Under the pieces are notes generated by a model that saw only the letters and a program-made list of their open reading frames with translations, was not told the DNA's origin and did not search any database. 64,000 bases of DNA, taken from the NCBI GenBank assembly GCA_018970425.1, contig JAGWWK010000002.1, positions 72,068-136,067 of the forward strand. The letters are read 5' to 3'. Shown piece after piece: positions 34-52,019 of the stretch (position 1 is its first letter; every line of letters begins with the position of its first letter). Source of the DNA: Patescibacteria group bacterium. Its GTDB lineage: Bacteria > Patescibacteriota > Minisyncoccia > Phycocordibacterales > Phycocordibacteraceae. A program made the translations under genes and the position numbers.

Positions 34-104
34 AGCGGGGTGGAGGAGTGGTACCTCACAAGGCTCATAACCTTGGGACCCAGGTTCGAATCCTGGCCCC
101 GCAA
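34..104 (+). tRNA. tRNA-fMet-like (anticodon CAT), probable initiator
   Basis: Cloverleaf read by eye: acceptor AGCGGGG/CCCCGCA, U8, D-stem GAGG/CCTC with A11:U24, anticodon loop CTCATAA, T-loop TTCGAAT. Very close to the E. coli tRNAfMet layout, including a 1:72 mismatch (A1/A72 here). CCA not encoded. Confidence 0.7.
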
Positions 105-154
105 CACGATGTACGCGCCGCGCCTGCGGCGCGTTTTGCTACCCTACCCCGCGG

Positions 155-11589: not shown

Positions 11590-13356
11590 CTATGCGGCGC
11601 TCATGTCTTGATCTTCAAGTAGATCTTTGCCGAGGGTATTTACTTCTTCAAACGGAATCTCTCCCTTCAGCATTTTAATGATAGCATCCTCACGCATGGT
11701 CATCATGCCTTGTGTGCGCGCGATCTTGTATATTTCGTCTTCAACAGGATGCTCCAGAATTATTTTTTCGAGATCGCGTGATGTCGGTAAGAATTCAAAG
11801 ACGCCAATGCGACCGCGCGTGCCTGACGGGCACGTAGCTGATGGCGCGATGCCGTACACTGTCTCAACCTGCGGGATCCTGCTCGCGTACTGCTTCGGAA
11901 GATCAGCAAATGATTTTGCGATCATGGTCTTGAGCGAGCCCTCAACGGGTATTGGCGTACCAGCATCAGTACAGCGACGACGTACCAAGCGCTGCGCGAT
12001 TGAGAGAATGAGTGTCGGCGCAATGAGGTAGGGGTCGATCCCCATGTCAACGAGGCGCGGGACGATTCCAATCGCATTGTTGGTGTGAAGCGTAGTGAGC
12101 ACTAGGTGGCCGGTAAGCGCCGCCTGCACCGCAAGCTGCGCGGTTTCCTTGTCGCGAATCTCGCCGACCATGATGATGTCCGGGTCCTGACGAAGAATGG
12201 AGCGGAGGCCCGAGGCAAATGTGTATCCGATTTCAGGACGCACCTGCGACTGCGACACACCAGCGACATCGTACTCAACCGGATCTTCAAGTGATACAAC
12301 GTTGAGTCCCTCGCGATCAAGCTCTTGGAGCATCGCGTAGAGTGTCGTCGACTTACCGCTACCTGTCGGACCAGATATGACAATAAGTCCGTACGGTCGG
12401 CGAATGGCAGATCGAATCAGCTCAATGTTGTAATCTTGTAGTCCAAGGTCCGCAAGAGTCAGCTGTTCGTGACTCTTATCGAGAATACGCATCACTACTT
12501 TCTCACCGTGATAGGACGGAAATGTTGAAACACGGAAGTCGATGCGGCGCCTATCAATCGAGGCGGAAAACCGACCGTCTTGCGGCTTTCTGCGCTCATC
12601 GAGCTTGAGGGATGACAGCACCTTGATGCGCGCTGCGACTGAACGTTCGACATTTTTAGGAAGTCGGAGTGATGTGTGAAGAACGCCGTCCACGCGAAAG
12701 CGAACCTTAAGTTCGTTTTCGGACGGCTCAATGTGAATGTCAGAGGCGCGCCCGTCCACCGCGTAGCGCAGGATGGTCGCGACAATCTTTGTGACCGGCG
12801 CGTCTTCTTTGAGCGCGTTCCCTTCCGCGATCTTGTCTTCAATATCAGGGCCGGTCGAGGGAAGCTCCGTCGTCACATCCCCGGGCTCCATCGTAGTCTC
12901 AAGTTCGGAAAGCGCGCGCCCTACCTCTGACGAAATACCCTTGTAGAGTTTTATAACGCGATCAAAGTCCTCTTGAGAAATAAGAAAGACCTTGAAAGGC
13001 ATTCCTTCTTTTGAGGAGATAAAGTTTAGCGCATCCATTGCCTCAAGATTGTCGGGGTCTGTTGTACCAACTTCAAGAACGCCGTCAGCGAGAGCGAGCG
13101 GCACAATGTGGTAGTGTCGCGCCGAGTCCTCGGGAATGTAGCGCAAAACAGTATTCGTAACCCCCGCCTCTTCAATAGAGCGCGTTGGGATTTCAAAGTA
13201 TGCTCCACGCGCTTCTAGAATGTCGCGCGCGGCGAGTCCACGATCAAGGAGCGCTTGTTCGAGTGTCTTCTTTCCTGAACTGACTTCTTCTTTAATCGCG
13301 GCGAGCGCGCCAGAGGGTATGAGACCTCGCTCACTTAAAATGGACAGGACATCCAT
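11590..13356 (-). CDS. pilB: type IV pilus assembly ATPase (GspE/PilB family)
   Basis: 588 aa. N-terminal GspE_N-like domain, Walker A GPTGSGKSTT, and a tetracysteine-less CTD variant. Confidence 0.9.
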   Translation of the reverse strand: MDVLSILSERGLIPSGALAAIKEEVSSGKKTLEQALLDRGLAARDILEARGAYFEIPTRSIEEAGVTNTVLRYIPEDSARHYHIVPLALADGVLEVGTTDPDNLEAMDALNFISSKEGMPFKVFLISQEDFDRVIKLYKGISSEVGRALSELETTMEPGDVTTELPSTGPDIEDKIAEGNALKEDAPVTKIVATILRYAVDGRASDIHIEPSENELKVRFRVDGVLHTSLRLPKNVERSVAARIKVLSSLKLDERRKPQDGRFSASIDRRRIDFRVSTFPSYHGEKVVMRILDKSHEQLTLADLGLQDYNIELIRSAIRRPYGLIVISGPTGSGKSTTLYAMLQELDREGLNVVSLEDPVEYDVAGVSQSQVRPEIGYTFASGLRSILRQDPDIIMVGEIRDKETAQLAVQAALTGHLVLTTLHTNNAIGIVPRLVDMGIDPYLIAPTLILSIAQRLVRRRCTDAGTPIPVEGSLKTMIAKSFADLPKQYASRIPQVETVYGIAPSATCPSGTRGRIGVFEFLPTSRDLEKIILEHPVEDEIYKIARTQGMMTMREDAIIKMLKGEIPFEEVNTLGKDLLEDQDMSAA

Positions 13357-13673: not shown

Positions 13674-14224
13674 GGTTTTAGCCAGTAGGTTCGTAAAGAG
13701 ACCGTGAAGTCGTATACGCCAGAGTCGGTGGCACTAAACGAGACTGACTCCACATCAACGAGTCGGAGCGACGTTTCGAGGTCAGCAAGGAACGAGCGGA
13801 ATGTTGCGTACGGACCCGAGACAGTGAAGGATATGCGCATTGATTCGTACAGGCGCTCATCAGGTCCTATTTGTACTTGCCGCTCTGCAGTCGCGCGTGG
13901 ACTGGTCTGCTTTTCAACAAGCACGTTTCGGATACGCATGCTGTACTGTGCCGCAAGTGAGTCCATGTCGAGCGCGAGGCGCACATTGTCTACATGGTCA
14001 GGGAGCATCTTTTCAAGACGCTCAAGGTCTTCCGTTCTGAACGCGCCTTTTCGAGAGATCAGCTGATCACGCACTTCTTGCAGCTCGCGTGCTCGGTCAA
14101 GCGCCAGCCGGAGTGTCGTTTCTTCTTCGCGGAGCGTACGAATCTCTGCATACGTTGGGTCTATGTAGAAGTAGAACGTACCTCCAGCAATGATGAGTGC
14201 AAGAATGGGGATGATGCCTTTCAT
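13670..14224 (-). CDS. PilO-like pilus assembly protein
   Basis: 184 aa. N-terminal TM then coiled-coil-rich periplasmic domain. 4-nt overlaps on both sides. Confidence 0.55.
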   Translation of the reverse strand: MKGIIPILALIIAGGTFYFYIDPTYAEIRTLREEETTLRLALDRARELQEVRDQLISRKGAFRTEDLERLEKMLPDHVDNVRLALDMDSLAAQYSMRIRNVLVEKQTSPRATAERQVQIGPDERLYESMRISFTVSGPYATFRSFLADLETSLRLVDVESVSFSATDSGVYDFTVSLRTYWLKP

Positions 14225-23410: not shown

Positions 23411-23499
23411 GGAGAGGTGGCTGAGCGGTCGAAAGCGGCACAGTGCTAATGTGTTGTCCGGGTAAAACTGGACCGTGGGTTCGAATCCCACCCTCTCCG
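23411..23499 (+). tRNA. tRNA-Ser (anticodon GCT)
   Basis: Class II tRNA: acceptor GGAGAGG/CCTCTCC, 3-bp D-stem, anticodon stem GCACA/TGTGT with loop GTGCTAA, long variable arm, T-loop TTCGAAT. CCA not encoded. Confidence 0.8.
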
Positions 23500-23511
23500 C
23501 TGCAGAAAATA

Positions 23512-24273: not shown

Positions 24274-24933
24274 TTACGCGCCTGAAAGCTTGGCAGATGG
24301 GTCTAGACGCTCCCGTTCTATACCGATTGTTGCCGCAGTATTAATGAGGTGTGCCTCTGCGTCTTGAATCGCTTCGCGCGACGCATCGGGGGGCACTGTA
24401 CGCTCGAACTCTAGTGACTCGTGCGGTGGTGAGAGTTTCTCACCGTCTCGCTCTGTGTATGTGTCAACATGGACTGTCGTACCGTTTTCGTGCAGGTAGG
24501 TGCTGCGCGTCCGTGTCGTGGTTCGATCAACCGCGAGTGCCGCCTCGGCGCTCGCGAGTGCAAAAAGAAAGTCGCGTATAGCCTGCTCCGCATCGGAAAA
24601 CGAGTGCGCGACGCCCTCGTGTTCGAGGTGCGCCTTTGACACCGTGAGTCCGTCACGCGGTTGAAACTCTTTGACCGCCCACTCATAGACTACGCGCGAT
24701 CCCTGCCGTCGCTCACGCACACGTGCCATGCCGTCAAAGCCCGGCAGTACTACCGCGAATCGCGTGTCGAGCAGGATTTCCGTGCCCTGACTTTCCGCGA
24801 CCTGCTGTAATCGCTCCTCACAGGCGGTACGCTCCTCGGCACCATTGAGTCTTGCTCGCGTCTCCACTTCCCGAACGCTCACATACTCACGAGTATTTCT
24901 CTCTTGTCTAAGCATCGAGACCTCGAGATTCAT
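24274..24933 (-). CDS. hypothetical protein
   Basis: Only long ORF covering an otherwise ~700-nt gap. ORF track extends it to 25119, overlapping recG, so an internal ATG (24933 or 24915) is more plausible. No family recognised; Arg/Glu-rich. Confidence 0.35.
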   Translation of the reverse strand: MNLEVSMLRQERNTREYVSVREVETRARLNGAEERTACEERLQQVAESQGTEILLDTRFAVVLPGFDGMARVRERRQGSRVVYEWAVKEFQPRDGLTVSKAHLEHEGVAHSFSDAEQAIRDFLFALASAEAALAVDRTTTRTRSTYLHENGTTVHVDTYTERDGEKLSPPHESLEFERTVPPDASREAIQDAEAHLINTAATIGIERERLDPSAKLSGA

Positions 24934-24960
24934 CCCGGCCACTATATACTGAGTCCGTAC

Positions 24961-27108
24961 ATGGAGCCACAGTCCCCGATTGACGACCTTGTCCGCTTGT
25001 CTACTGCGCATCGCGCCGCGCTTGAGCGCCTTGGCATTGCAAATATCCGCGACCTCCTCTACCACATACCCCACCGCTACGAGTCGGCCGCTGATATACG
25101 TGAGGTCGCGCAACTCCACACACCGGGCGAGGTGACGCTATACGGGCAGTTCACCGCGCTTGAAATGAAACGCTCGTTCAAAACCAGAGTACCCATGGCC
25201 GAGGGAACTTTTGACGACGGCACGGGTACGGTGCGCGTTGTATGGTTTCATCAGCCATACCTTGCAAAAATGGTTCCCACGAACGAACTTGTGCGATTGC
25301 GTGGCCCGCTCTCGATTTCCAAGGGACGGAAGTACATTGCAAACCCGGTAGTCGAGCGCGCGGCTGGACTTCCGGTACTACAAGACACGGAGGGTATGGT
25401 GGCAGATGGTGGTATGCAGCCGGTGTACCCCGAGACCGCAGGCATTACCTCACTCTGGTTCTACCACGCGGTAAAGCGCGCACTCGAGGCGCGCGTCCAC
25501 GAATCGCTTGTAGACCTAGTGCCACGAGAGATTCTTGAGAAGTACCACCTACCCACGCTACAGACCGCGCTAGTCTGGGCACACCAACCCAAACATCAGA
25601 AAGACGCGGACGCCGCAAAGAAGCGTTTTGCGTTCGAGGAAGTGTTTATGATCCAACTCGCGCGCGCTCTCGAGCGTGAAAAAAATAAAGAAAAGCGCGC
25701 GCTCCCCGTTGATGCCGACGAAGCGCGGGTGCACGCATTTATTGACACCTTTCCCTTCGCACCAACGGGTGGGCAACGACGCGCGATTGCCGACATTCTT
25801 GCAAACTTCCTTGAGCCGTACCCTATGGCGCGCCTCCTCGAGGGCGACGTCGGCAGTGGCAAGACCGCGGTCGCCGCGGCGACCGCGTACGCAGTCGTGA
25901 CATCGCGTCCGGTGCCAGGAAAAAACTTTGGTAACCTGCAGGTCGCGTACATGTGCCCGACTGAAATACTCGCCAAGCAGCACTTCTCAACCTTTACGTC
26001 GTTTTTTAAAAAGTACCCTATACAAATCGGACTCATCACCTCGTCAGGCTGTTACAAGTTTCCGTCGAAGGTGCACCCCGATAAGCCGACTGAAATATCT
26101 CGCACACAGCTTTTAAAGTGGGTGGCTAATGGAGAGGTACCAATCCTCATTGGTACGCATGCTCTTATTCAAAAAGCGGTGAAGTTTAAGCACCTCGCAT
26201 ACGTCATTATCGACGAGCAACACCGCTTTGGTACCGCGCAGCGACAGGCCCTCACACTCAAAGACGGCGTGGCACCGCACCTCCTCTCCATGACCGCGAC
26301 CCCCATTCCGCGCACACTCGCCTTGACGCTCTACGGCGACCTCGACCTCACCGTACTCGACGAGCTCCCTGCTGGGCGTAAGCCTATAGATACGAAGATA
26401 GTGACACCACACGAGAGATCCGGCGCGTATACAAAAGTACGCGAACTCTTGGCTCAAGGTCGACAGGCGTACGTCATTTGTCCGCGTATCGACGAGCCGG
26501 ATCCGACAAAACAGATGGCACTCCAGGCGCGCTCGGTCGCAGCAGAATTAAAAAATCTGCACAAGCTGTTCCCCGAATTCGTGATCGAAAAAATGCACAG
26601 CAAGATGAGTCCGAAGGATAAGGAGGACGTCATGGCCGCGTTTGAACAAGGAAAGATACACATACTCGTCTCGACGTCGGTGGTCGAGGTGGGCGTCAAC
26701 GTCCCGAACGCGACGATTATTTTAATCGAAGGCGCAGAGCGCTTCGGCTTGGCCCAGCTCCACCAGCTACGCGGACGCGTGATGCGCTCGACGCACCAGC
26801 CGTATTGCTTCCTCATGGTAGACAAAGCGAGCTCCTTAGGGAACGCGCGGCTCAAGGCGATACTGAAAGCAAAAAACGGATTCGAGCTCGCTGAGCATGA
26901 CCTCGCGATACGCGGCGCGGGAGAACTCTATGGGCGCAGGCAGTGGGGCATCTCTGACATCGGTATGGAAGCCTTAAAAAATATAAAGCTTGTCGAGGCT
27001 GCTCGGAGCGAAGCATTCGCCCTCGTGTCTACAGACGCTGACCTACGCACCCTGCCCGACCTAAAAAAACAAGCCCTTCATACACTGAAGGACCTGCATT
27101 TTGAGTAG
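24961..27108 (+). CDS. recG: ATP-dependent DNA helicase RecG
   Basis: Wedge/OB N-domain, helicase motifs GDVGSGKT, DEQHRFG, MTATPIPRT, QLRGRVMRS. ORF opens at 24904, but the RecG-like N-terminus starts at the ATG at 24961. Confidence 0.9.
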   Translation: MEPQSPIDDLVRLSTAHRAALERLGIANIRDLLYHIPHRYESAADIREVAQLHTPGEVTLYGQFTALEMKRSFKTRVPMAEGTFDDGTGTVRVVWFHQPYLAKMVPTNELVRLRGPLSISKGRKYIANPVVERAAGLPVLQDTEGMVADGGMQPVYPETAGITSLWFYHAVKRALEARVHESLVDLVPREILEKYHLPTLQTALVWAHQPKHQKDADAAKKRFAFEEVFMIQLARALEREKNKEKRALPVDADEARVHAFIDTFPFAPTGGQRRAIADILANFLEPYPMARLLEGDVGSGKTAVAAATAYAVVTSRPVPGKNFGNLQVAYMCPTEILAKQHFSTFTSFFKKYPIQIGLITSSGCYKFPSKVHPDKPTEISRTQLLKWVANGEVPILIGTHALIQKAVKFKHLAYVIIDEQHRFGTAQRQALTLKDGVAPHLLSMTATPIPRTLALTLYGDLDLTVLDELPAGRKPIDTKIVTPHERSGAYTKVRELLAQGRQAYVICPRIDEPDPTKQMALQARSVAAELKNLHKLFPEFVIEKMHSKMSPKDKEDVMAAFEQGKIHILVSTSVVEVGVNVPNATIILIEGAERFGLAQLHQLRGRVMRSTHQPYCFLMVDKASSLGNARLKAILKAKNGFELAEHDLAIRGAGELYGRRQWGISDIGMEALKNIKLVEAARSEAFALVSTDADLRTLPDLKKQALHTLKDLHFE

Positions 27109-27182
27109 TGGGCGTGCCTGGACTCGAACCAGGGACCGCGGAGGTATAAGCTCCGTGCTCTAACCAACTGAGCTACACGCCC
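27109..27182 (-). tRNA. tRNA-Ile (anticodon TAT, reads AUA)
   Basis: Reverse complement GGGCGTG-TA-GCTC-AGTTGGTTA-GAGC-A-CGGAG-CTTATAC-CTCCG-CGGTC-CCTGG-TTCGAGT-CCAGG-CACGCCC-A. All four stems are canonical. Anticodon loop C-T-TAT-A-C. Confidence 0.8.
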
Positions 27183-27249
27183 GTTCCCCCCTCACTCCTT
27201 GACTGTAAGCTCTGCACTCACACAGCTGAGCTAAGGGCGGATGCACTAA

Positions 27250-27456
27250 CTATACAGTGCGAGGGACTACTTGCGAAGGAGTGATACAGACGGCGTATGC
27301 CAAGCCTATGAGAGCAAGTATGTATGAGTACAGAAGCGTGTACTGCGCCTCAGAGCTGAGCTCTATCTGAAGCATATCCTGGAGACCCACATCAAGTGCT
27401 ATCGTACCCAACAAAAGAAAAAAGCTCAAAGTGCCTACTGCCTCACCGCGCTCCAT
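27250..27456 (-). CDS. small hydrophobic ORF (68 aa), doubtful
   Basis: AT-richer segment between tRNA-Ile and ftsH. Two predicted hydrophobic stretches. No homology recognised. Confidence 0.2.
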   Translation of the reverse strand: MERGEAVGTLSFFLLLGTIALDVGLQDMLQIELSSEAQYTLLYSYILALIGLAYAVCITPSQVVPRTV

Positions 27457-27677: not shown

Positions 27678-29618
27678 TCACGCAACCACCGCGTGCTCGA
27701 TATCTTTTTTTACCTTCGGCGTGATGCCGTTAGCGATCAGTAGCTTCTCGAAATCGTCGCGCTCAATAGTTTCCTTTTCAACAAGCGTTCGAGAAATAGC
27801 GTCGAGCACGGAACGATGCTCAGTGATGATATGTTTCGCCTTCGCGTAGGCCTCGTCGATGATACGCTTCACCTCCGCGTCGACCTTAGCTGACATCGCT
27901 TCTGAATAGTCACGCTCGCCTATACCGCGACCAAAGAGCGCACGCCCACCATCACCCTCAATAGCGATCGTACCTATTGCGTCGGACATACCGTAGCGCG
28001 TCACCATGTCGCGTGCGAGTGCGGTCAAGACCTGTAGGTCGTTCGACGGTCCTGTGGTCACATCGCCAAAAATCTCTTTTTCAGCTACGTACCCACCAAG
28101 GGACACGGCAATGTCGTCGAGGAACTCGTTCTTCGACTGCATCTTCGTATCTTCCAAAGGAAGTTTGAGTGTATAGCCAGCAGCGCGTCCGCGACTGATG
28201 ATCGAGATCTTGTGCACCGGGTCGGCAAACGGCAGTACGGACGACACAAGCGCGTGCCCTGCCTCGTGGTACGCCGTTATTTCTTTTTCTTTCTTGTTAA
28301 GTACGTGTGACTTCCTTTCAGGCCCGAGCATCACCTTTTCAATTGAGCGGATGAGGTCAAACTGCGCGACTTTTTTGCGATCCTCACGCGCAGCAAGGAT
28401 GGCGCCCTCGTTCATGAGAGAGTAGAGCTCCGCGCCTGAAAAACCGGGCGTGCGTTCCGCGATTACCTTAAGATTTACATCCTCAGCAAGAGGCTTCTTG
28501 CGAGCATGAATCTTGAGGATCTCTTCGCGACCATCACGGTCTGGAAGGTCGATGGTGACGCGGCGGTCAAAGCGTCCCGGGCGCAGGAGCGCCGGGTCAA
28601 GAACGTCAGGACGGTTAGTGGCCGCCATGACAATCACTTTTTCATTCGGCTCGAAGCCGTCCATCTCAACAAGAATTTGGTTTAGAGTTTGTTCGCGCTC
28701 GTCGTTGCCGCCACCGACACCGGTACCGCGTACGCGCCCAACAGCATCTATTTCATCGACAAAAATAATTGCAGGTGCTGCGCGCTTTGCCATCTGGAAC
28801 AAGTCGCGCACGCGAGACGCGCCAACGCCCACAAACATTTCAACAAATTCTGAGCCGGAGATTGAGAAAAACGGCACACCAGCCTCGCCCGCAACAGCGC
28901 GGCCGAGCAAGGTCTTTCCGGTGCCTGGCGCGCCCATGAGTAGTACTCCCTTCGGAATACGCGCACCAATGTCGAGGAACTTTTTAGGATTCTTTAAGAA
29001 GTCGACAATTTCCGTGAGCTCCTCCTTCGCCTCCTTCGCGCCCGCGACATCAGAAAAGGTGACGCGCTGGGCAGTATCTTTCGGGTCGATCATGCGCGCC
29101 TTTGACTGTCCGAAGGTAAACGCCTGCACGCCACCCTGGCGCATCTGCTTAGACAAGAACCAGATAAATACGCCAATCAAAATGAGTGGCAAGAGGATGG
29201 GTGCGAGTGAGAAGAACCAGTAGCGGAATCCTGACTGGTCCTTGACCTCTATCTGTACCGCCGCGAGCGCCTCTCCCGTGAGGCCGTAACTTGAGAGCGT
29301 CTCGGTGAGCGCGGCGTCGGGCTCCTTTTTCCCCTTCTTTTCAGTTTTGTCAGTGTAGGTGACGGTGAGTTCATTACCGGAAACAGCGATCGACTCTACC
29401 TGCCCCGCGCGTATGTCGGTTGCAAGCGCGGAGAGCGTCACGCTCGCGGGCGTAGTGTCGGTCCGAAACGCATACGAGTACGCGAGCGCAAGAAGAACAA
29501 TGAGCGCGAGTGTGGTGGTGAAAGACGACCACGGATCAGTACTTCGTGGCGTAAGCGGTGACCAGCGCGAGCCGCGCTTATCGGTTTTTTTAGGTTTTTG
29601 CGATCGAGGAGGTGGCAT
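27678..29618 (-). CDS. ftsH: ATP-dependent zinc metalloprotease FtsH
   Basis: 646 aa. Two N-terminal TM helices, AAA+ Walker [12 protein letters not shown], zinc motif HEAGHA. Confidence 0.9.
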
Positions 29619-30048: not shown

Positions 30049-30440
30049 CTTTTTATATTCGCCATTTTAGACGGTTGGTGCGGTACGGCATCGTCGGGAG
30101 TATTGCCTTTGCCATCGACATGGCACTCCTTGTAGCATTCGATTTCCTACTCGGACTCCCCTACCAAGCGGCCGTCCCCTCAGCTTTTCTCATAGCGACA
30201 TCTATTCACTATGTACTCGTGCACCGAGTTGCGTTCACAGACAGCGAACGACCAGCACATGAGGCATACCCATTCTTTCTCATCATTATGTGCGGAAGCG
30301 CAGCTGCAGTAACGGGGCTCGTATACGTGCTCGTTGAGTATGGCGGTCTGTCACTCTATGTCGCGCGAGTCGCGGTGTCTGGTATCGTGGGACTAGTTTC
30401 TTTTTACATGAATACGAAGTACAACTTTAGAATCGTATGA
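30045..30440 (+). CDS. GtrA-family membrane protein (tandem paralog)
   Basis: 131 aa, 4 TM, ends ...YMNTKYNFRIV. 4-nt overlap with smpB. Confidence 0.6.
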   Translation: MTFYIRHFRRLVRYGIVGSIAFAIDMALLVAFDFLLGLPYQAAVPSAFLIATSIHYVLVHRVAFTDSERPAHEAYPFFLIIMCGSAAAVTGLVYVLVEYGGLSLYVARVAVSGIVGLVSFYMNTKYNFRIV

Positions 30441-30883
30441 GCACAGATATCGTAAACAAAAAAGCGCGGCTCGAGTACGACATCCTGGATGAGTTTGAGG
30501 CAGGCATCGCGCTCGCCGGCTACGAGGCCAAGGCACTCCGCGCTGGCAAGGCCACGCTCGCGGGTGCGCGCGTCGTAGTGCGCGGCGGCGAGGCGTACCT
30601 CATAGGCGCCACTATCAGTCCGTACCAGGAGGGCAACGTACCCAAAAGCTACGACCCCGAGCGCGCGCGCAAGCTCCTCTTCTCCCGCTCAGAGCTTGCA
30701 GAGCTCGGAGGAGCAGAGACACAGCGAGGGTTGACAATAGTGCCTATAATGGTGTATAATAAAAAGCGCTTCATTAAGCTCCTGTGCGGCGTAGCGCGAA
30801 AGAAGAAAAAACATGACAAACGCGCTACACTCAAGGAGCGCGATGAGCGCAGGGACATCGAGCGTTCTTTGAAAAATCAATAA
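30437..30883 (+). CDS. smpB: SsrA-binding protein
   Basis: 148 aa, typical SmpB sequence with basic C-terminal tail. Immediately upstream of the tmRNA gene. Confidence 0.9.
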   Translation: MSTDIVNKKARLEYDILDEFEAGIALAGYEAKALRAGKATLAGARVVVRGGEAYLIGATISPYQEGNVPKSYDPERARKLLFSRSELAELGGAETQRGLTIVPIMVYNKKRFIKLLCGVARKKKKHDKRATLKERDERRDIERSLKNQ

Positions 30884-30922
30884 GGTCACTCGCGCGCAGC
30901 GCAGGCTCCTGCCCGCGCTGCG

Positions 30923-31294
30923 CGGGGGTGACCTGAATCGACAAAGAAATTACTTTCTTCTGTGCAACGTGGTGAATGTTGGAGAACACCTAAAATCTCG
31001 AACAACCAACAGTGTGAAAAACACTATGACCGCATCGTGGTTTACCCGTGCGGACTTTGCTTTCGCTCACGCCTAAGCAACATCATCTACACGACTCCTG
31101 ATAGTGTAGCTCTGGTGTCATATCATCAGGATTATCTGAAAGCCTGCCCGCCTTTCAGAAACATGTAGGGCTCGGTATGCAGTTATCTTGTTTGTTTCTT
31201 ACCTGCATGCTTAAACCTCGAAATAAACTATACGTTGTAGAATCGGTTTAAAGACCTTCTTTGGACGAGGGCTCATTACCCTCCACCTCCACCA
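30923..31294 (+). ncRNA. ssrA: tmRNA (ssrA), one-piece
   Basis: 5' GGGGGTGACCTGAATCGAC... and 3' ...GGACGAGGGCTCATTACCCTCCACCTCCACCA. Acceptor GGGGGTG/CACCTCC with the G3:U70 alanine identity pair, T-arm GAGGG-CTCATTA-CCCTC, encoded CCA. Candidate tag frame gca tcg tgg ttt acc cgt gcg gac ttt gct ttc gct cac gcc TAA (31031..31075), reading ...ADFAFAHA*. Resume codon uncertain. Confidence 0.8.
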
Positions 31295-39566: not shown

Positions 39567-42431
39567 CTACAGCTGCTTTTTTAGCTGCGCATACTTCTCT
39601 CTGATCTCGTCCTCAACGGCAGCGCGCGGTCTTCCGAAGCGCTGGAACGACAATTGCTTCAGTGTCTCTATATTAACTGCATCACCAGATACATATGGCA
39701 GTGCGTCAAGCGTAAATGGAGGGAGCGGTGAGTTGTTTGCGAGGAGGCGCACATACGCACTAAAGTTCGGAATTTTCAGCACATCGGTGGGTGAAAATAT
39801 GGGAGTTAACTGCTTTGAAAGAAACTCGGCGTCATCGGGTCCCACGCGAAACACGGCCATAGAGCCGACATTTCCGAACACTGCGTCGCGGATGCGCGGG
39901 TACAGTTGTCCTAAAAATTGGTGCGCCATCGTAAGCGAGAGACCGAACTTTCTTGCCTCGGCAAGGATAGTTGATATTGAGTCGGTCGAAATGTTTTGGA
40001 ACTCGTCGAGATAGAGGTAAAACGGCGGCGGTTTTTTACTCGGATCGCGCGCAAGCGCGGTCATAAGAAACTTGCCTACGATGATGAGACCGATAAGGTT
40101 TGCGTTTTGATCGCCGAGGCGACCCTTCGACAGGTTTACCAAGAAAATTTTCTTGCTGTCCATTATGTCTTTGAAGTTGAACGAGCTTCGCTGCTGCCCT
40201 ACGATCGGTCGCATGATCTCATTCGCAATAAAGATGTCGAACTTTGAGGTAATGTACGGCACAATGTTTTTAAGCGACCCCTCGCCGGAGACGCGCTCTG
40301 CAATATCTTCCCAGAAATGGGATACCACTTCGTTCTTACAGCGCGAGAGCTTGAGGCGACGGTAACTCTCATCAGAAAGCACGCGTGCAATGTCCATGAG
40401 CGTCGAGCCGGTGTCTGGATCCTCGACCACGAGGAGTGCTGCGTTTCTAAAGTACTGCTCGAAAATCGGACCAAATGCCTCGGGCACTTGCCCGTAGAGC
40501 TTTTGAAATATCTTGAAAAGCTCGTCTACAACGAACGTTTTTTGCTCTGGAAAGCGCGGATCGTACTCGAGCATGTTGAGTCCCATCGGCCGGTCGGTAA
40601 ATGCTGGATCAAAGTAGATCACATCGTCGTACCGCTCTTTTGGAATGCGCGAGAGAATGTCAATTACATCCGCACCATGCGGGTCAACAAAGCAGACACC
40701 CTCGCCATTTTCGATATCTTGAATGATGAGGTTTTTGAGAAAATTGGTTTTACCGGTACCGGTCTGACCTATCACATAGAGGTGACGCAGTCGATCGTTC
40801 GGCGTCATGCGTATATCTACTGTCACGCCTGCATGAGTATTTCTGCCAAGAAGTACTCCTGATGTCGGGACACCAAGAGGCGCAGGTGCGTACTTGCCGC
40901 CAGCGGTTTTAGCCTCGCGGCTCGTAGTACCACCGGCAATCGCGAGATGGAACACGGTTGCGAGCTCTTGAAGGTTCATAGGCATACAGGGACTTGCATA
41001 CAGGAGCGGAGAGCGTATCTTCTCAAAGAACTCATTGTACAAAGCGCCCCAAAAGGACTCGATGGGTCCGGGATCAAACGTGCGGAAAATAAACGATCGG
41101 AGGAGCGCATGCTCATCGCGAGCGGTTTTCGGAAAGCGGACTTTAAAGCGATTGCCCTGTATGTCCTCGAACTGGTTTAGAACGAGCTCGAACTCATGCA
41201 TCAGCGCGTCGGCTCGCTGCGCGGTGCGTGCCGACACCACAAAACGCATATTGACGCCCGATATGACGCTCCGCATTTTTTTCTCTATCTGGTTTACCTG
41301 AATAGCATCTGCCTCGTAGTCTTTTTCTTTTTTCTCTTTGGAAGAGAAAATATCCATGACAGTGCTCAAGAATTTGGGCGCATGTTTCCGCATAAAGGAA
41401 AGACGTCCGAGCAGTCGGTGTTTCCGGTACACCTCCGCGCCCGACATCTTGCCGGACCGTAGGTCATCGAGCACTGACTTAAACCGTTTAGTCCAATACT
41501 CCCCCGCTGACGCGACGGAAAACTGGAGCGCCGCACCCTCACCCTCTTTTGACATCCGCGACATGACCGCGAGGAGCTGGTTGAGCGGATCATTCACGAA
41601 CTGATCGGCCGTTCGTATAGGAAGGCACATTGGCCGATACAGCGTTAGGTACGCAATACGCGTCACCCCGAATTGATTGAAAGGGTTGTAATCTTTTTTG
41701 AGTTCGTGCACGTGCGCATCATGGAAGTGCGCATGTATCTGCTTTTCAAACAGCTCCCGACGCTTCCGAGGCACCGCAACATAGAACACTGCATCCTCTT
41801 CTGCTGAAGAGACGGCGAGTTCCATAGTAAAGTGGTCTTTGTGAATGGCGCGGCGCTTCCTCCAGTCCTTGAAAAAAATCATATCGGGGAGCCCGGCAAA
41901 CGGAATGACTGCCTGGTAGAGGAGCTCCATCTGCGTCACGATGTCCGTCAGTGACCCGCCATGATTCCCACTCATCTCTGGCACCGTCACCTCAAGTACC
42001 GTAAAGTCGAGCGCACGGCCTATGTCGCTTTTCGGGTCAAGACCGGGTATAGACGTACCCTCAGCACGCATCGAGGTGAGGAGATTGTGGAAATCGTCTT
42101 CTAGGTGCGGATTTTTAATTCGATCAAGTTCGCGAAGCGCGGCCGGAAGACCTCGCTCGTTTAAAATGGAGAGGAGCTCCTCCATATCTTTGTCATTGGC
42201 CTCAGGGGTGAGTTGTACTTTGAACTCGGGCTTTCTCTCGATGGGTTGCGTGGGGATCATTGGCCCCTCCACAGGCATGTCGAGTATGTCATCGTGAGAC
42301 TGAGAAGCCCCGCGTCTGCCGCCGCCGTACCCGCCGCTTCGCGTATCTTCTTTCTGCTTATTCAAATTCTGCTCTGGGGAGAGATTTTTTTCAGGCGGCG
42401 CGTCGAAACTTGGAACCCCTGGGTTCACCAT
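39567..42431 (-). CDS. large soluble VirD4/TraG/TrwB-like (type IV coupling protein family) P-loop ATPase with a ~500-aa N-terminal domain of unknown function
   Basis: 954 aa. Walker A GQTGTGKT, Walker B YLYLDEFQNI, a TMAHQFLGQL motif typical of T4CP/HerA-FtsK-like ATPases. No N-terminal TM helices. Confidence 0.65.
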   Translation of the reverse strand: MVNPGVPSFDAPPEKNLSPEQNLNKQKEDTRSGGYGGGRRGASQSHDDILDMPVEGPMIPTQPIERKPEFKVQLTPEANDKDMEELLSILNERGLPAALRELDRIKNPHLEDDFHNLLTSMRAEGTSIPGLDPKSDIGRALDFTVLEVTVPEMSGNHGGSLTDIVTQMELLYQAVIPFAGLPDMIFFKDWRKRRAIHKDHFTMELAVSSAEEDAVFYVAVPRKRRELFEKQIHAHFHDAHVHELKKDYNPFNQFGVTRIAYLTLYRPMCLPIRTADQFVNDPLNQLLAVMSRMSKEGEGAALQFSVASAGEYWTKRFKSVLDDLRSGKMSGAEVYRKHRLLGRLSFMRKHAPKFLSTVMDIFSSKEKKEKDYEADAIQVNQIEKKMRSVISGVNMRFVVSARTAQRADALMHEFELVLNQFEDIQGNRFKVRFPKTARDEHALLRSFIFRTFDPGPIESFWGALYNEFFEKIRSPLLYASPCMPMNLQELATVFHLAIAGGTTSREAKTAGGKYAPAPLGVPTSGVLLGRNTHAGVTVDIRMTPNDRLRHLYVIGQTGTGKTNFLKNLIIQDIENGEGVCFVDPHGADVIDILSRIPKERYDDVIYFDPAFTDRPMGLNMLEYDPRFPEQKTFVVDELFKIFQKLYGQVPEAFGPIFEQYFRNAALLVVEDPDTGSTLMDIARVLSDESYRRLKLSRCKNEVVSHFWEDIAERVSGEGSLKNIVPYITSKFDIFIANEIMRPIVGQQRSSFNFKDIMDSKKIFLVNLSKGRLGDQNANLIGLIIVGKFLMTALARDPSKKPPPFYLYLDEFQNISTDSISTILAEARKFGLSLTMAHQFLGQLYPRIRDAVFGNVGSMAVFRVGPDDAEFLSKQLTPIFSPTDVLKIPNFSAYVRLLANNSPLPPFTLDALPYVSGDAVNIETLKQLSFQRFGRPRAAVEDEIREKYAQLKKQL

Positions 42432-48486: not shown

Positions 48487-48873
48487 CTATAGATGCTTCC
48501 TCTGCCAAGCCAAAATGCAGAGCGACCCTACAACAAAAAGCATCGACATAAGGAATGCGACCGAACTCTTGTCAAAGCCGTAGAGGAAATCAGTGCGGTA
48601 CTCGGGCGCTAAAAATACTGCAAGCACTGACATAGGGATCCATACTAGTGCAAAGCTGCTCCATGTATTAAATATTTTTTTTGACGTACGAGAAACAAGG
48701 AGAAAAGTCAAAAAGAATATAATGAAAGGCTGAAGTGGGAGGCCGAAAAAATAGTTCCAGCTCATGCACCAACGCCAACTATCTCCGCACAAGTAGAAAG
48801 GTTGAAGCGCTCCAGAAATCAAAGCTAAAGCAGCTCCAATACCGAGAAACGTCATCCAAGTTTTTGTGTTCAT
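48487..48873 (-). CDS. small 4-TM membrane protein, AT-rich, paired with the lipase-like gene
   Basis: 128 aa, Trp/Phe-rich TM protein. 4-nt overlap (ATGA) with the upstream 1049-aa gene. Markedly lower GC than flanking ribosomal genes by eye. Confidence 0.45.
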   Translation of the reverse strand: MNTKTWMTFLGIGAALALISGALQPFYLCGDSWRWCMSWNYFFGLPLQPFIIFFLTFLLVSRTSKKIFNTWSSFALVWIPMSVLAVFLAPEYRTDFLYGFDKSSVAFLMSMLFVVGSLCILAWQRKHL

Positions 48874-51800
48874 TGCTGAAATTGTACTGAACCAATAAGC
48901 ATACTTACGATAGCTGCACCGTATCGCAAGATGTCATCTATATAATCCCATGCAAACTGGAACGCGATACTCCAGAGGGCGCGTGCAACGATAGTCATAT
49001 TTTGCACCTCACCCTCATCTAAAAGTGCTGGTGCTTGCTCAATACTCTCCCTCACACCTTTTTCAAATTGCCGTACCTGCTCTACTGTCTGAGCGACGTC
49101 AGGTTGAACGGCGGCAATCGCCGCACCGAGCACTCGACCCTGTGGCGCTGGCAGTGACTCTATTGATGGTACGGACTGCTGTACCTCAGAATCTGCCAGT
49201 ACCTCGGAAGGCTGGGTATTAGGTAGAACAGGATCTGGCAGTTTACGTACAACAGTCACAGACTCTTGGCCCGTAACCTGGCTCGATACAATCACTCCGC
49301 CGCCCAAGGACGCTACCGCAGGACTCACTGGTGACAAGGTCGGCGCGGGCGCAGGGGGTGGCGGAAGTGTGACCGAACTATTCAGGTTCGGTGAGAGTGT
49401 GTGCTCATCGACTCCATCCCCGTCTTGATCTATATGGAGCTTACTCAACCCGCTGTACCCCCCTGCCGTTGCTAGAGCGACGCGTGTCTCAGGCGATACG
49501 GGCAAATCTTCAAACCGGGTAAAGGCCTGCACAGCGTCACCCTCTCGCTCCTCTACAACGAGTGTAAAAGTTCCACTGCCCGTACCAGTGAGATGTGCAG
49601 ATACAGGACTACTGGCATCAACAAACGCATAGGACGAACTTCCGAGCGTGATGAACCGTGAGTTTGGTATGCCTTCCGACAACTCTCCTGTTGTCGTGGA
49701 TACGCCAGTCATACGACCCTCGCTGTCGTAGAGCGCGAGTGTGAGCGGCGAGTGAAGCGATATAAGGAGCCGGCGCTGCCCGGCGGCCGGCTGAGTGTCG
49801 CTGAGGTGTGAATACGCAGACACAGGCGCCCGTGTCTTGGTAATGGTATCTGCGATAAAATTAAGTACTGGATCGGCTTCTAAAAGGCGAGAGTGCTCAA
49901 AATTTCTAAACCCTCCAAGAGTAGCAATCAAGTTCGACCGATTATGCACGTCGAGATCGAACCAAAACCTCTCACCACCTGACATCCATAGCGCACTGGG
50001 TGCGACTACTGTACCGTCACCATTCACACTAAATCGCGCGTTCGGCTCTACGCCACTCGGTCCGGATGAGTATGTTATTCCTTTCAGCGTCTCAACACCC
50101 CACCCGCCTATCTGCACGACCGCAATTTCTGCGGGATGTACCCATCCGTCAATCGATTCATGGAGCGTTCGGGCTGACGCAAGGAGGTTCTGACTGAGCG
50201 CAATCGGCTGATCAATATCGCCCTCTGGTAGTACCTTACCGAACGCACTGGTAAGCACTTCAGCGAGCTGCGACTGAGAAGAAATAGACGCACCAAACTG
50301 ACTGCGCCACGCTGGTACACTCGAGTCGAACGTAACGACCGAGCTGTCTATGGATTGAAAATAGGCCTCCGTGGGCAATAGGTGGTAAAACATCGGCGAT
50401 GTAGACGCAAATGCGCGTGCTACCTGCTTAGAAAGCACAAGTCCATAGAGGAGCTCTTGGCGAAATCCGTGCATGCCAGCAGCAATCGCCATTGGTGTAC
50501 CCACCTGAGGAGCACCAATCAGTATGATGGAGTCAATGTACCGAGCTGCATCGTCACCAAGCGTTTCCGCAAGGCGTTTAGCTATGATCCCGCCATAGGA
50601 GTGCGCAATCACGGTGACCTTCCCCGTACGAGACGTTTCCGCTAAATGGCGGAGCTCCTGCACAATATACGGCGTTGACGTAGGAGCGAGGAGACCTGTG
50701 AAGTAAATACGACCATCGGTTTCATACCCGCGTGTAAGTAACGAGTCGGGTGAGAGTCGCCAGTCGTACGCAATAGGTTCCCAGTCGGCAATTTTTCCAT
50801 CAGCCTTCAGCGCATCCATGCGGGTTATGAATGACTTGTAGATATTGAGTCCGGTAGGTGTTTCATCAAGAATGTCGTGAGTCTTCACATAGATGTCATC
50901 TCGCACACCTTCACCGAAGTCATTCAAAAAGAGGTCGCGCACATCATCGTTGTGCATCGGCTCCCACAAGCGATCCGTACCTCCGGCGTAGTCAGGCCGA
51001 TACAGTCTCGAACCCTCAATGCCCGGCAAAAACAGCACATTAGAGTTGCAATTTTCAACACACACAGTATCCGCTATGCTCGGTCGAAACGCCGAGGATC
51101 GCATGGCTGAGGCAGTGCCATCGATTCGTGCAGTAAATCGAATGTAGACGGACTCAGGAATTGTTCCGGAGCACTGCTCGCAGGCAATTTCGCTATCGCT
51201 TTCATCATTCCACAAAACCCACGTGGTCGGCGATGTCATGCGCAGCGAGAAGTAGCGCACGTACGGCGGCACCGCAAGCGTCAATTCAGTGGTCTGACGC
51301 GCCTCAATGTCACACGTAGTAGGATACGTTTCTAGTATCACAAAAAAAGGCCTGCCATCGTTGTTCGGCGTCCTGAGGCGCATATGGAGGTGCAACAACC
51401 CTCCTACGTACTCAGCACGCTCATGCGAGTCGAATAAATAACCTGATGACAAAGCGGCTACGCAGTCTGGATTACGCAGCACAGTATCAGGAAACTCGGG
51501 GGGCACTGCTCCCTCACGTATTGCCACAGTGCGAGTGTGAGCGTAACTTGCACCACCGTCTATAAAAGGCCGAATGAACGCGCGTGTGTACGCAGGATAC
51601 GGAGGTACCGTAACCTCGCTCACCTTAACGCCCAAAGTGTCATCCCATACTTCAATTTGAGTAGCTGACGCGAATCGAATACTCCACTCAGTTGAACCTG
51701 GCGCAAGTTCGGTCGTAAAACGCTTTGAGCCAATCTCTAGGCACTCATCTGAGATGAAATACACGTCTACTGAAAAAGAACGGCCATCTTGAAGCTCGGG

Positions 51801-52019
51801 CTGCAGAGACAGTCCCATCCTAAGGAGACCCGATTCATAATAAACCTCCTCCCGGTCAGAGAAAAAATACCCGGTCGCTAAAATACTCGACTGCCCGCAT
51901 GGATCAGAAAATAGCGCGAGAACTGAACGCGGTACTCCATAAAAAAAAATGGCGAGCATACAGCTCGCCACCACTACAGTGAGAAACATACCTGCCCAAA
52001 TACGGGCATGCCAGCGCAT
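48870..52019 (-). CDS. large secreted/membrane-anchored alpha/beta-hydrolase (lipase/LCAT/PGAP1-like) protein
   Basis: 1049 aa. N-terminal TM/signal segment. Nucleophile elbow VIAHSYGGIIAKR with upstream LFLPGIEGS (oxyanion region). Long Thr/Ser/Pro-rich region (PPPPAPAPT). C-terminal hydrophobic helix. AT-richer third positions than core genes. Confidence 0.6.
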   Translation of the reverse strand: MRWHARIWAGMFLTVVVASCMLAIFFYGVPRSVLALFSDPCGQSSILATGYFFSDREEVYYESGLLRMGLSLQPELQDGRSFSVDVYFISDECLEIGSKRFTTELAPGSTEWSIRFASATQIEVWDDTLGVKVSEVTVPPYPAYTRAFIRPFIDGGASYAHTRTVAIREGAVPPEFPDTVLRNPDCVAALSSGYLFDSHERAEYVGGLLHLHMRLRTPNNDGRPFFVILETYPTTCDIEARQTTELTLAVPPYVRYFSLRMTSPTTWVLWNDESDSEIACEQCSGTIPESVYIRFTARIDGTASAMRSSAFRPSIADTVCVENCNSNVLFLPGIEGSRLYRPDYAGGTDRLWEPMHNDDVRDLFLNDFGEGVRDDIYVKTHDILDETPTGLNIYKSFITRMDALKADGKIADWEPIAYDWRLSPDSLLTRGYETDGRIYFTGLLAPTSTPYIVQELRHLAETSRTGKVTVIAHSYGGIIAKRLAETLGDDAARYIDSIILIGAPQVGTPMAIAAGMHGFRQELLYGLVLSKQVARAFASTSPMFYHLLPTEAYFQSIDSSVVTFDSSVPAWRSQFGASISSQSQLAEVLTSAFGKVLPEGDIDQPIALSQNLLASARTLHESIDGWVHPAEIAVVQIGGWGVETLKGITYSSGPSGVEPNARFSVNGDGTVVAPSALWMSGGERFWFDLDVHNRSNLIATLGGFRNFEHSRLLEADPVLNFIADTITKTRAPVSAYSHLSDTQPAAGQRRLLISLHSPLTLALYDSEGRMTGVSTTTGELSEGIPNSRFITLGSSSYAFVDASSPVSAHLTGTGSGTFTLVVEEREGDAVQAFTRFEDLPVSPETRVALATAGGYSGLSKLHIDQDGDGVDEHTLSPNLNSSVTLPPPPAPAPTLSPVSPAVASLGGGVIVSSQVTGQESVTVVRKLPDPVLPNTQPSEVLADSEVQQSVPSIESLPAPQGRVLGAAIAAVQPDVAQTVEQVRQFEKGVRESIEQAPALLDEGEVQNMTIVARALWSIAFQFAWDYIDDILRYGAAIVSMLIGSVQFQQ

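Follow-up and report, generated by a model that had tools for sequence, protein, structure and literature searches.

The window analysed here, i.e., a stretch of 64,000 nt from a Patescibacteria bacterium, encodes on its minus strand a genuine and canonical tRNA-Ile with a genome-encoded UAU anticodon (Table 1). We are highly confident that this gene is the AUA-specific tRNA-Ile of its Patescibacteria host and that it forms the inner copy of a nested arrangement of tRNA genes, with a likely course of expression from promoter to terminator as given below.

The discrimination of AUA from AUG is a classic problem, and nearly all bacteria are thought to use TilS and lysidine for it. The enzyme TilS is regarded as essential and almost universally present. 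The set of known exceptions is widened by an entire clade, within the very large Patescibacteria radiation, that has a genome-encoded UAU tRNA at high AUA frequency. This clade also offers a natural system for studying how U34 avoids AUG and how IleRS accepts U34 in a minimal translation machinery. For the annotation of CPR genomes this means that the standard model should not be the yardstick for tRNA sets and tilS calls. Compared with the UAU tRNA itself, the nested copies are the more unusual feature of the locus, and may represent a new way of tRNA gene replacement or interruption in bacteria.

The tRNA-Ile gene and its candidate expression signals

ARAGORN reports a tRNA-Ile with anticodon tat at 27108-27182 of the minus strand. 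The respective match of Rfam family RF00005 (27109-27182, minus strand) scores 71.9 bits against a gathering score of 29 (E-value 9e-14). Read on the minus strand, the gene sequence is GGGCGTGTAGCTCAGTTGGTTAGAGCACGGAGCTTATACCTCCGCGGTCCCTGGTTCGAGTCCAGGCACGCCCA. In its cloverleaf, all 21 of 21 pairs of the four stems are Watson-Crick; the discriminator is A73 and CCA is not encoded. The earlier note, which was made from the sequence of the window, had described a minus-strand tRNA with a clean four-stem fold and the loop CTTATAC. This description is right according to both scans and the all-Watson-Crick stems, and ARAGORN gives the same anticodon. In total, ARAGORN finds three tRNAs in the window, i.e., Met(cat) at 34-105 (plus strand), Ser(gct) at 23411-23500 (plus strand) and the Ile(tat) studied here.

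Table 1. Features of the tRNA-Ile(UAU) locus and the second NAU-anticodon tRNA of the window.
Feature	Position	Strand	Basis
tRNA-Ile gene, anticodon TAT (UAU), 74 nt	27109..27182	-	ARAGORN; Rfam; covariation in 15 homologues
Anticodon T34-A35-T36	27146..27148	-	sequence; inside loop CTTATAC (27150-27144)
5' arm of nested element, CAGTCAAGGAGTGAGGGGGGAAC, GAGTGAG motif	27183..27205	-	comparison with L003, L013 and 14 metagenome contigs
Relic 5' half of older tRNA-Ile(UAU), CCGCCCTTAGCTCAGCTGTGTGAGTGCAGAGCTTA	27206..27240	-	nhmmer with tRNA profile
Sigma-70-like promoter candidate	27249..27277	-	consensus scan: -35 TTCGCA, 17-nt spacer, -10 TATAGT
Terminator-like hairpin and T-run	27060..27097	-	consensus scan, sequence; 11 nt past tRNA 3' end
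tRNA, anticodon CAT, initiator-like	34..105	+	ARAGORN; Rfam; sequence by eye

The tRNA had also been described as lying immediately after recG. This holds for the forward-strand coordinates, where the stop codon of recG (24904-27108, plus strand) abuts the tRNA gene, but not for transcription, i.e., the two genes are convergent and the tRNA is not co-transcribed with recG. Upstream of the tRNA and on the same strand lies ftsH (27678-29618, minus strand); it is followed by two GtrA-like genes, smpB and the tmRNA.

Transcription most likely starts from the TATAGT promoter candidate, whose predicted start falls approximately at the beginning of the relic 5' half (consensus match only). It would proceed through a 58-nt leader that would consist of the dead 5' half of an older tRNA-Ile(UAU) and a conserved arm. 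A TATAGT box precedes the tRNA, or its outer 5' half, at the equivalent position of most related loci. Release of the tRNA would rely on ordinary 5' and 3' processing, and termination would occur at the hairpin within the recG 3' end. The hairpin proper of this predicted terminator spans 27097-27069 and is followed by the T-run. Since it is encoded inside the 3' end of recG, both genes share this stretch on opposite strands; hairpin and T-run fall within the last 16 codons of the convergent recG (27060-27108).

The CAT tRNA at the window start is the only other tRNA of the window with an NAU anticodon. It had been taken for an initiator rather than an Ile2 tRNA, which is borne out by the 1:72 mismatch (A1xA72), the A11:U24 pair and the absence of an Ile-type body (by eye). 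As an initiator it is atypical, since that of E. coli has C1xA72. Furthermore, the bottom of its anticodon stem holds two, not three, G-C pairs, plus A29-U41. This result applies to the window and has no bearing on the rest of the genome.

Host and conservation among relatives

The host is a Kaiserbacteria/Paceibacteria-like bacterium of the Patescibacteria (CPR). Its exact FtsH sequence is on record only in one Logan assembly (SRR32006835), while all relatives of its RecG (63-82% identity) are Patescibacteria MAGs labelled as Kaiserbacteria, Paceibacterota or 'Saccharibacteria'. The window has a G+C content of 52-55% and shows typical CPR gene content, i.e., a type IV pilus cluster, a ribosomal protein/secY block and gatA.

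A tRNA-Ile(tat) was found near recG in 15 of 18 related loci (denoted by L numbers), 14 of them complete and the fifteenth cut by a contig end. The tRNA-Ile(UAU) is also present on 14 independent metagenome contigs, and the ftsH-tRNA-recG arrangement is conserved across relatives. Judged from these loci, the genome-encoded UAU trait is clade-wide in this Patescibacteria group.

We aligned the 15 homologous genes. The anticodon loop CTTATAC is invariant among them and likewise in every inner and outer copy of the metagenome loci described below. With regard to the cloverleaf, 99.6% of the cells are paired and 14 of the 21 pairs changed on both sides; none of 500 shuffles reached a value as high, and slid controls were 29-50% paired. 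At the level of the aligned genes, this shows tRNA-Ile(UAU) to be under strong purifying selection across the clade. Invariant over all 15 genes are also C4:G69, U12:A23 and A73, which we take to be identity elements of E. coli IleRS, as well as A35-U36-A37. Position 38 is C in the clade, while A38 is among the E. coli IleRS identity elements.

Codon use and meaning of AUA

The earlier note had proposed to look at the AUA frequency. Over 60 window ORFs, AUA is common (n=223), which corresponds to 12.2 per 1000 codons and 19.8% of the Ile codons, and it is present in 51 of these ORFs. A frequency of 12.2 per 1000 belongs to the 'high' class of PMC12514573, with E. coli at 4.9.

For the AUA positions of the window's RecG, 141 of 198 aligned orthologue residues are Ile and 5 are Met. 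The respective counts for FtsH are 51 and 5 of 78. The orthologue codons opposite AUA in both genes are mostly ATT, ATC or ATA, and the residues I, L or V. These codon alignments show that AUA stands for isoleucine in this organism. The organism needs an efficient AUA reader.

Comparison with known AUA decoding systems

That genomic UAU tRNA-Ile genes are uncommon in bacteria, as claimed in the earlier note, agrees with PMC3575796, PMC4013482 and a 2026 preprint (bioRxiv 10.64898/2026.02.03.703510). They are known from nine bacterial species without tilS and from a few with both systems, and 371 unique TAT tDNAs of unknown origin were found in metagenomes (PMC3575796). TAT tRNA-Ile genes occur in 19 species of tRNADB-CE (PMC4013482), and the preprint speaks of 'rare cases'. 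In Mycoplasma mobile, the UAU anticodon is unmodified, Arg865 of IleRS replaces Trp905 of the E. coli enzyme, and the ribosome rejects AUG, while Bifidobacterium and Neorickettsia have a TAT tRNA-Ile and a eukaryote-type IleRS but no tilS (PMC3575796).

Our literature search found no description of AUA decoding, tilS or UAU tRNA in Patescibacteria (the supplement of PMC13011429 comes without an anticodon-level table), for which reason we class the gene as belonging to a known kind but to a new lineage of it. As far as can be read from sequence, it functions in AUA decoding in the manner of Mycoplasma mobile, and this type is rare. Like tRNA-Ile2(UAU) of M. mobile (Taniguchi et al. 2013, PMC3575796), the window gene would read AUA as Ile by a genome-encoded UAU, and both genomes are reduced. 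In contrast to M. mobile, the host belongs to the Patescibacteria and not to the Mollicutes, and the trait is clade-wide and found in a G+C-rich genome (54%) with frequent AUA. Furthermore, the gene is embedded in a nested-relic locus. Bifidobacterium and Neorickettsia share with it the genome-encoded TAT in bacteria outside the Mollicutes.

The canonical tRNA-Ile2(CAU)/TilS system also reads AUA as Ile, with a tRNA of similar body (C4:G69, C5:G68 in most clade members). The difference is the anticodon, which is TAT and not CAT in the window tRNA, so that no lysidine is needed on it. The same anticodon is found in all 15 of 15 clade genes, which places them outside the tRNA-Ile2(CAU)/lysidine class. 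The different AUA decoding strategy that the earlier note saw implied is thus supported in the sense that a UAU anticodon means reading of AUA without lysidine on this tRNA.

Decoding model and its alternatives

Given that UAU is written in the genome, AUA would be read by a U34-A pair at the wobble position. Charging would be done by an IleRS accepting U34, as in M. mobile (Arg865) or in bacteria with a eukaryote-type IleRS, and A37 would carry t6A. The U34 state, the invariant loop context with C32/C38 or the ribosome may keep AUG from being misread.

We consider it probable that tRNA-Ile(UAU) is the only AUA decoder of the organism, i.e., that tilS and tRNA-Ile2(CAU) have been lost. A phmmer search with the E. 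coli proteins against every ORF from the window and from 35 related loci (~407 kb) gave no TilS or IleRS homologue, where the loci are scattered, small parts of each genome such that an absence of tilS or ileS from them says little. A Pfam scan of 40 of the 72 candidate ORFs of the window, including all of at least 250 aa, identified neither tilS nor ileS. Likewise, neither the window nor the ~407 kb of related loci, i.e., small parts of the genomes, contains an Ile2-type tRNA(CAU).

It is conceivable, if rather doubtful, that the host kept tilS and a lysidine-type tRNA-Ile2(CAU) and uses the UAU tRNA as a second AUA reader, which would be a transition state as proposed for Lactobacillus casei, Cyanothece and Ferrimonas. 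Bacteria with both systems are documented (PMC3575796), and the tilS search spans just the window and the ~407 kb of scattered loci. However, Patescibacteria genomes are very small (0.5-1.5 Mb; PMC13011429), which makes a duplicated decoding system less likely. The clade-wide retention of the UAU tRNA at high AUA usage points in the same direction. In many bacteria tilS is located upstream of ftsH, and the window ORFs show none at this place. Somewhat more plausible, but still not what we expect, is a modification of U34, e.g., to pseudouridine or another A-restricting derivative, such that the modification and not the ribosome stops AUG misreading. Here, the invariance of the whole loop CUUAUAC including C32 and C38 fits an enzyme recognition site, and the anticodon of eukaryotic tRNA-Ile is pseudouridine-A-pseudouridine (PMC3575796). 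Yet no candidate enzyme was found in the window, and the sole biochemically studied bacterial UAU tRNA-Ile has an unmodified anticodon.

The two remaining explanations concern the gene as such. If it were a pseudogene or by-product of repeated insertions at the locus, AUA would have to be read otherwise. Dead tRNA fragments do lie at the locus, and L007 holds relics alone; but the perfect cloverleaf of the window copy with its 71.9 bits, the intact inner copies in 11 of 11 nested loci and the evolution of the stems by compensatory change make this very improbable. Even less credible is a reassignment of AUA, e.g., to Met as in many mitochondria, with the tRNA carrying another amino acid. The unusual anticodon hints at it and nothing beyond, while AUA aligns overwhelmingly with ATT/ATC/ATA and with I, L or V. 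The Met variant is rejected by the codon alignments of RecG and FtsH given above (Met at 5/198 and 5/78), and the Ile-type A73, C4:G69 and U12:A23 are invariant.

A nested locus with relics of older copies

A profile of the 15 tRNAs also matches partial copies in the window and its relatives (nhmmer). In the window, the relic 5' half is cut inside the anticodon after TTA (...GAGCTTA); it comes right behind the promoter candidate, with 23 nt between it and the tRNA gene downstream. Over 27240-27205, 33 of 36 positions agree with the outer 5' half of L013, an aberrant D-loop included (E-value 2e-8). The 5' arm now forms the tRNA leader, while its 3' counterpart and the 3' half are absent from the window genome. 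Their deletion would have brought recG up against the tRNA.

The full nested arrangement survives in L003 (13584-13800) and L013 (8644-8864). In both, a promoter precedes the outer 5' half and the 5' arm; then come a complete inner tRNA-Ile(UAU), the 3' arm and the outer 3' half, which begins with TATACC, and last a terminator. Scanning metagenome contigs for the 3' junction resulted in 15 matches, i.e., 14 independent ones and L034, whose shown junction sequence equals that of L003. Both L024 and L034 stem from Hainich H41 groundwater. Those contigs that are complete on the 5' side (among L023-L037) show the nested layout with L032 (92-227) as sole exception, where a plain hairpin replaces the inner tRNA and the outer copy is decayed; L035 and L036 are cut within the inner tRNA. 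In L033 (2434-2733) and L028 (607-860), the first element is a plain-hairpin rod beside a complete inner tRNA. Two elements can be arranged in series, and the inner and outer tRNA sequences are the same within L028 and within L033.

We joined the halves of the outer copies in silico, upon which 10 of 11 still gave a tRNA-Ile(tat) call. Paired cells amount to 95.7% in the outer copies (acceptor helix 89.6%) compared to 99.6% in intact genes, where the apparent intactness of the outer 3' halves is partly an artefact because these were selected by the search pattern. The window, L013, L003, L026, L027, L032 and L007 have clearly decayed outer copies, and more than one relic layer is found in L002, L003, L026 and L033.

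Two further loci are worth describing on their own. L003 (about 13803-13885) and L006 (about 12656-12730) have a leader of ~72 nt in common, which follows directly after TATAGT and lies upstream of the tRNA. It starts with CCGCCC, which repeats the 5' strand of the acceptor, includes AAGCTT, CCTCGAAG and a hairpin, and may be an even older, collapsed relic layer. The ftsH-recG region of L007 (12955-13170), on a contig of 749 kb, shows no callable tRNA-Ile(UAU) and holds relics only, namely a decayed inner tRNA, the 3' arm and a 3' half that is intact.

On the RecG tree, loci of the nested and the plain state are intermixed, and the similarity of tRNA-Ile(UAU) does not follow that of RecG (compared for L031, L025, L016 and L012). 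The window tRNA shares 94.6% identity with the L031 inner copy, though the L031 RecG fragment is 61% identical, and only 66% with the tRNA of L016, though the L016 RecG is 79% identical. This suggests that the tRNA-Ile(UAU) gene was replaced or moved horizontally within the clade.

Structure and nature of the flanking element

The two arms pair with each other. Helix P1, which they form, begins with U34-A35 of the outer 5' half; the 14 elements contain 12 distinct P1 sequences. For P1 positions 3-7, 65 of 67 cells are paired compared to 60% with shuffled partners (0 of 5000 shuffles as high). Past P1, a conserved purine-rich AGYGAG is opposite CGAGCGAA, followed by a second helix around the cargo. 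Directly before the outer 3' half stands a tail, UCGNAGA. Without tRNA cargo the element measures 70-75 nt, and its junctions are CTTA and ...AGA-TATAC, each with a copy of the repeated TA.

A profile of the 3' arm matches tRNA-Ile(UAU) loci and nothing else in the window or the related loci. An Rfam scan of six nested loci by E-value gave tRNA-related matches but no other family. Near the nested loci, ftsH and recG alone recur, i.e., there is no recurrent recombinase or nuclease gene, and the viral contigs searched contain no copy of the element. Nested or split tRNA genes in Patescibacteria were not described in the literature that our search returned.

We compared the element with known kinds of insertions. 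Like the group I introns at position 35/36 of Patescibacteria tRNA-Asn and tRNA-Asp (PMC13011429), it is inserted inside the anticodon. In contrast to these, it usually carries a complete second tRNA, and with 70-75 nt it is too small, lacks a group I core, a U at its 5' junction and a terminal G, and has no Rfam match; we therefore reject a group I intron. Hammerhead and other known ribozymes are rejected as well (no Rfam match; the would-be cleavage position is a G by eye). A bulge-helix-bulge intron would need two 3-nt bulges around a 4-bp helix. By inspection, this geometry does not fit the predicted junction folds, whose helix of 6-9 bp is flanked by 2 nt (CU) at one side and by ~12 nt (UCGNAGA+UAUAC) at the opposite one. 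A MITE or IS630-like element with TA duplication is discarded given the lack of terminal inverted repeats (the paired segments are not at both termini) and of dispersed copies. The tRNA 3'-fragment duplications left by integrases resemble the locus in having partial copies beside a full tRNA and a break in the anticodon loop. They differ from it in that here both 5' and 3' halves are found 20-45 nt from the gene, on both of its sides, without an integrase or island, and that the arms are conserved and covarying; integrase att scars are thus rejected. The same applies to a phage vector, given the lack of viral-contig matches.

As a joint reading of these observations we prefer, with moderate confidence, that insertion of an arm-tRNA-arm cassette into the anticodon repeatedly replaced the resident tRNA gene, that the cassette may spread by homologous recombination, and that the rod separates or processes the tRNA. 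The spread could be by recombination of the ordinary homologous kind, for which the conserved neighbours and the tRNA halves would provide the homology arms. As for the rod, it may keep the new tRNA folding apart from the near-identical dead halves, or may be a processing stem. It is unlikely that the outer copy is still made and the element removed as a new kind of intron; we retain this alternative because the outer copies of L024 and L037 show two compensatory acceptor-stem differences. The acceptor sequences of the outer copies are specific to them in L024, L031 and L037. Under the cassette and the intron reading alike, the window tRNA is the inner copy that took over.

A more general view, which we put forward only tentatively, is that the anticodon of tRNA-Ile(UAU) is the target of an undescribed small structured element in many Patescibacteria, being either a self-replacing cassette or a third kind of bacterial tRNA intron. 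In the cassette version, a site-specific element would kill the resident copy, supply a new one and spread between lineages. In the intron version, the element would be removed from the outer tRNA. The window gene would be a cargo copy of this type, with a host copy that has decayed. The tip of the element would be a hairpin or a complete second tRNA-Ile(UAU), and its freely covarying helix would include U34-A35.

Further observations in the window

The gene smpB and the directly following tmRNA (30924-31294; Rfam 80.6 bits) occupy 30437-31294 of the plus strand. Their pairing recurs in L023 and L026, again close to the tRNA; though ordinary, it belongs to the conserved neighbourhood. Two large proteins are encoded on the minus strand. 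The first (39567-42431, 954 aa) has a type IV secretion coupling-protein domain (VirD4/TrwB-like), and the second (48870-52019, 1049 aa) has an LCAT/alpha-beta hydrolase domain and lies beside the ribosomal-protein/secY block.
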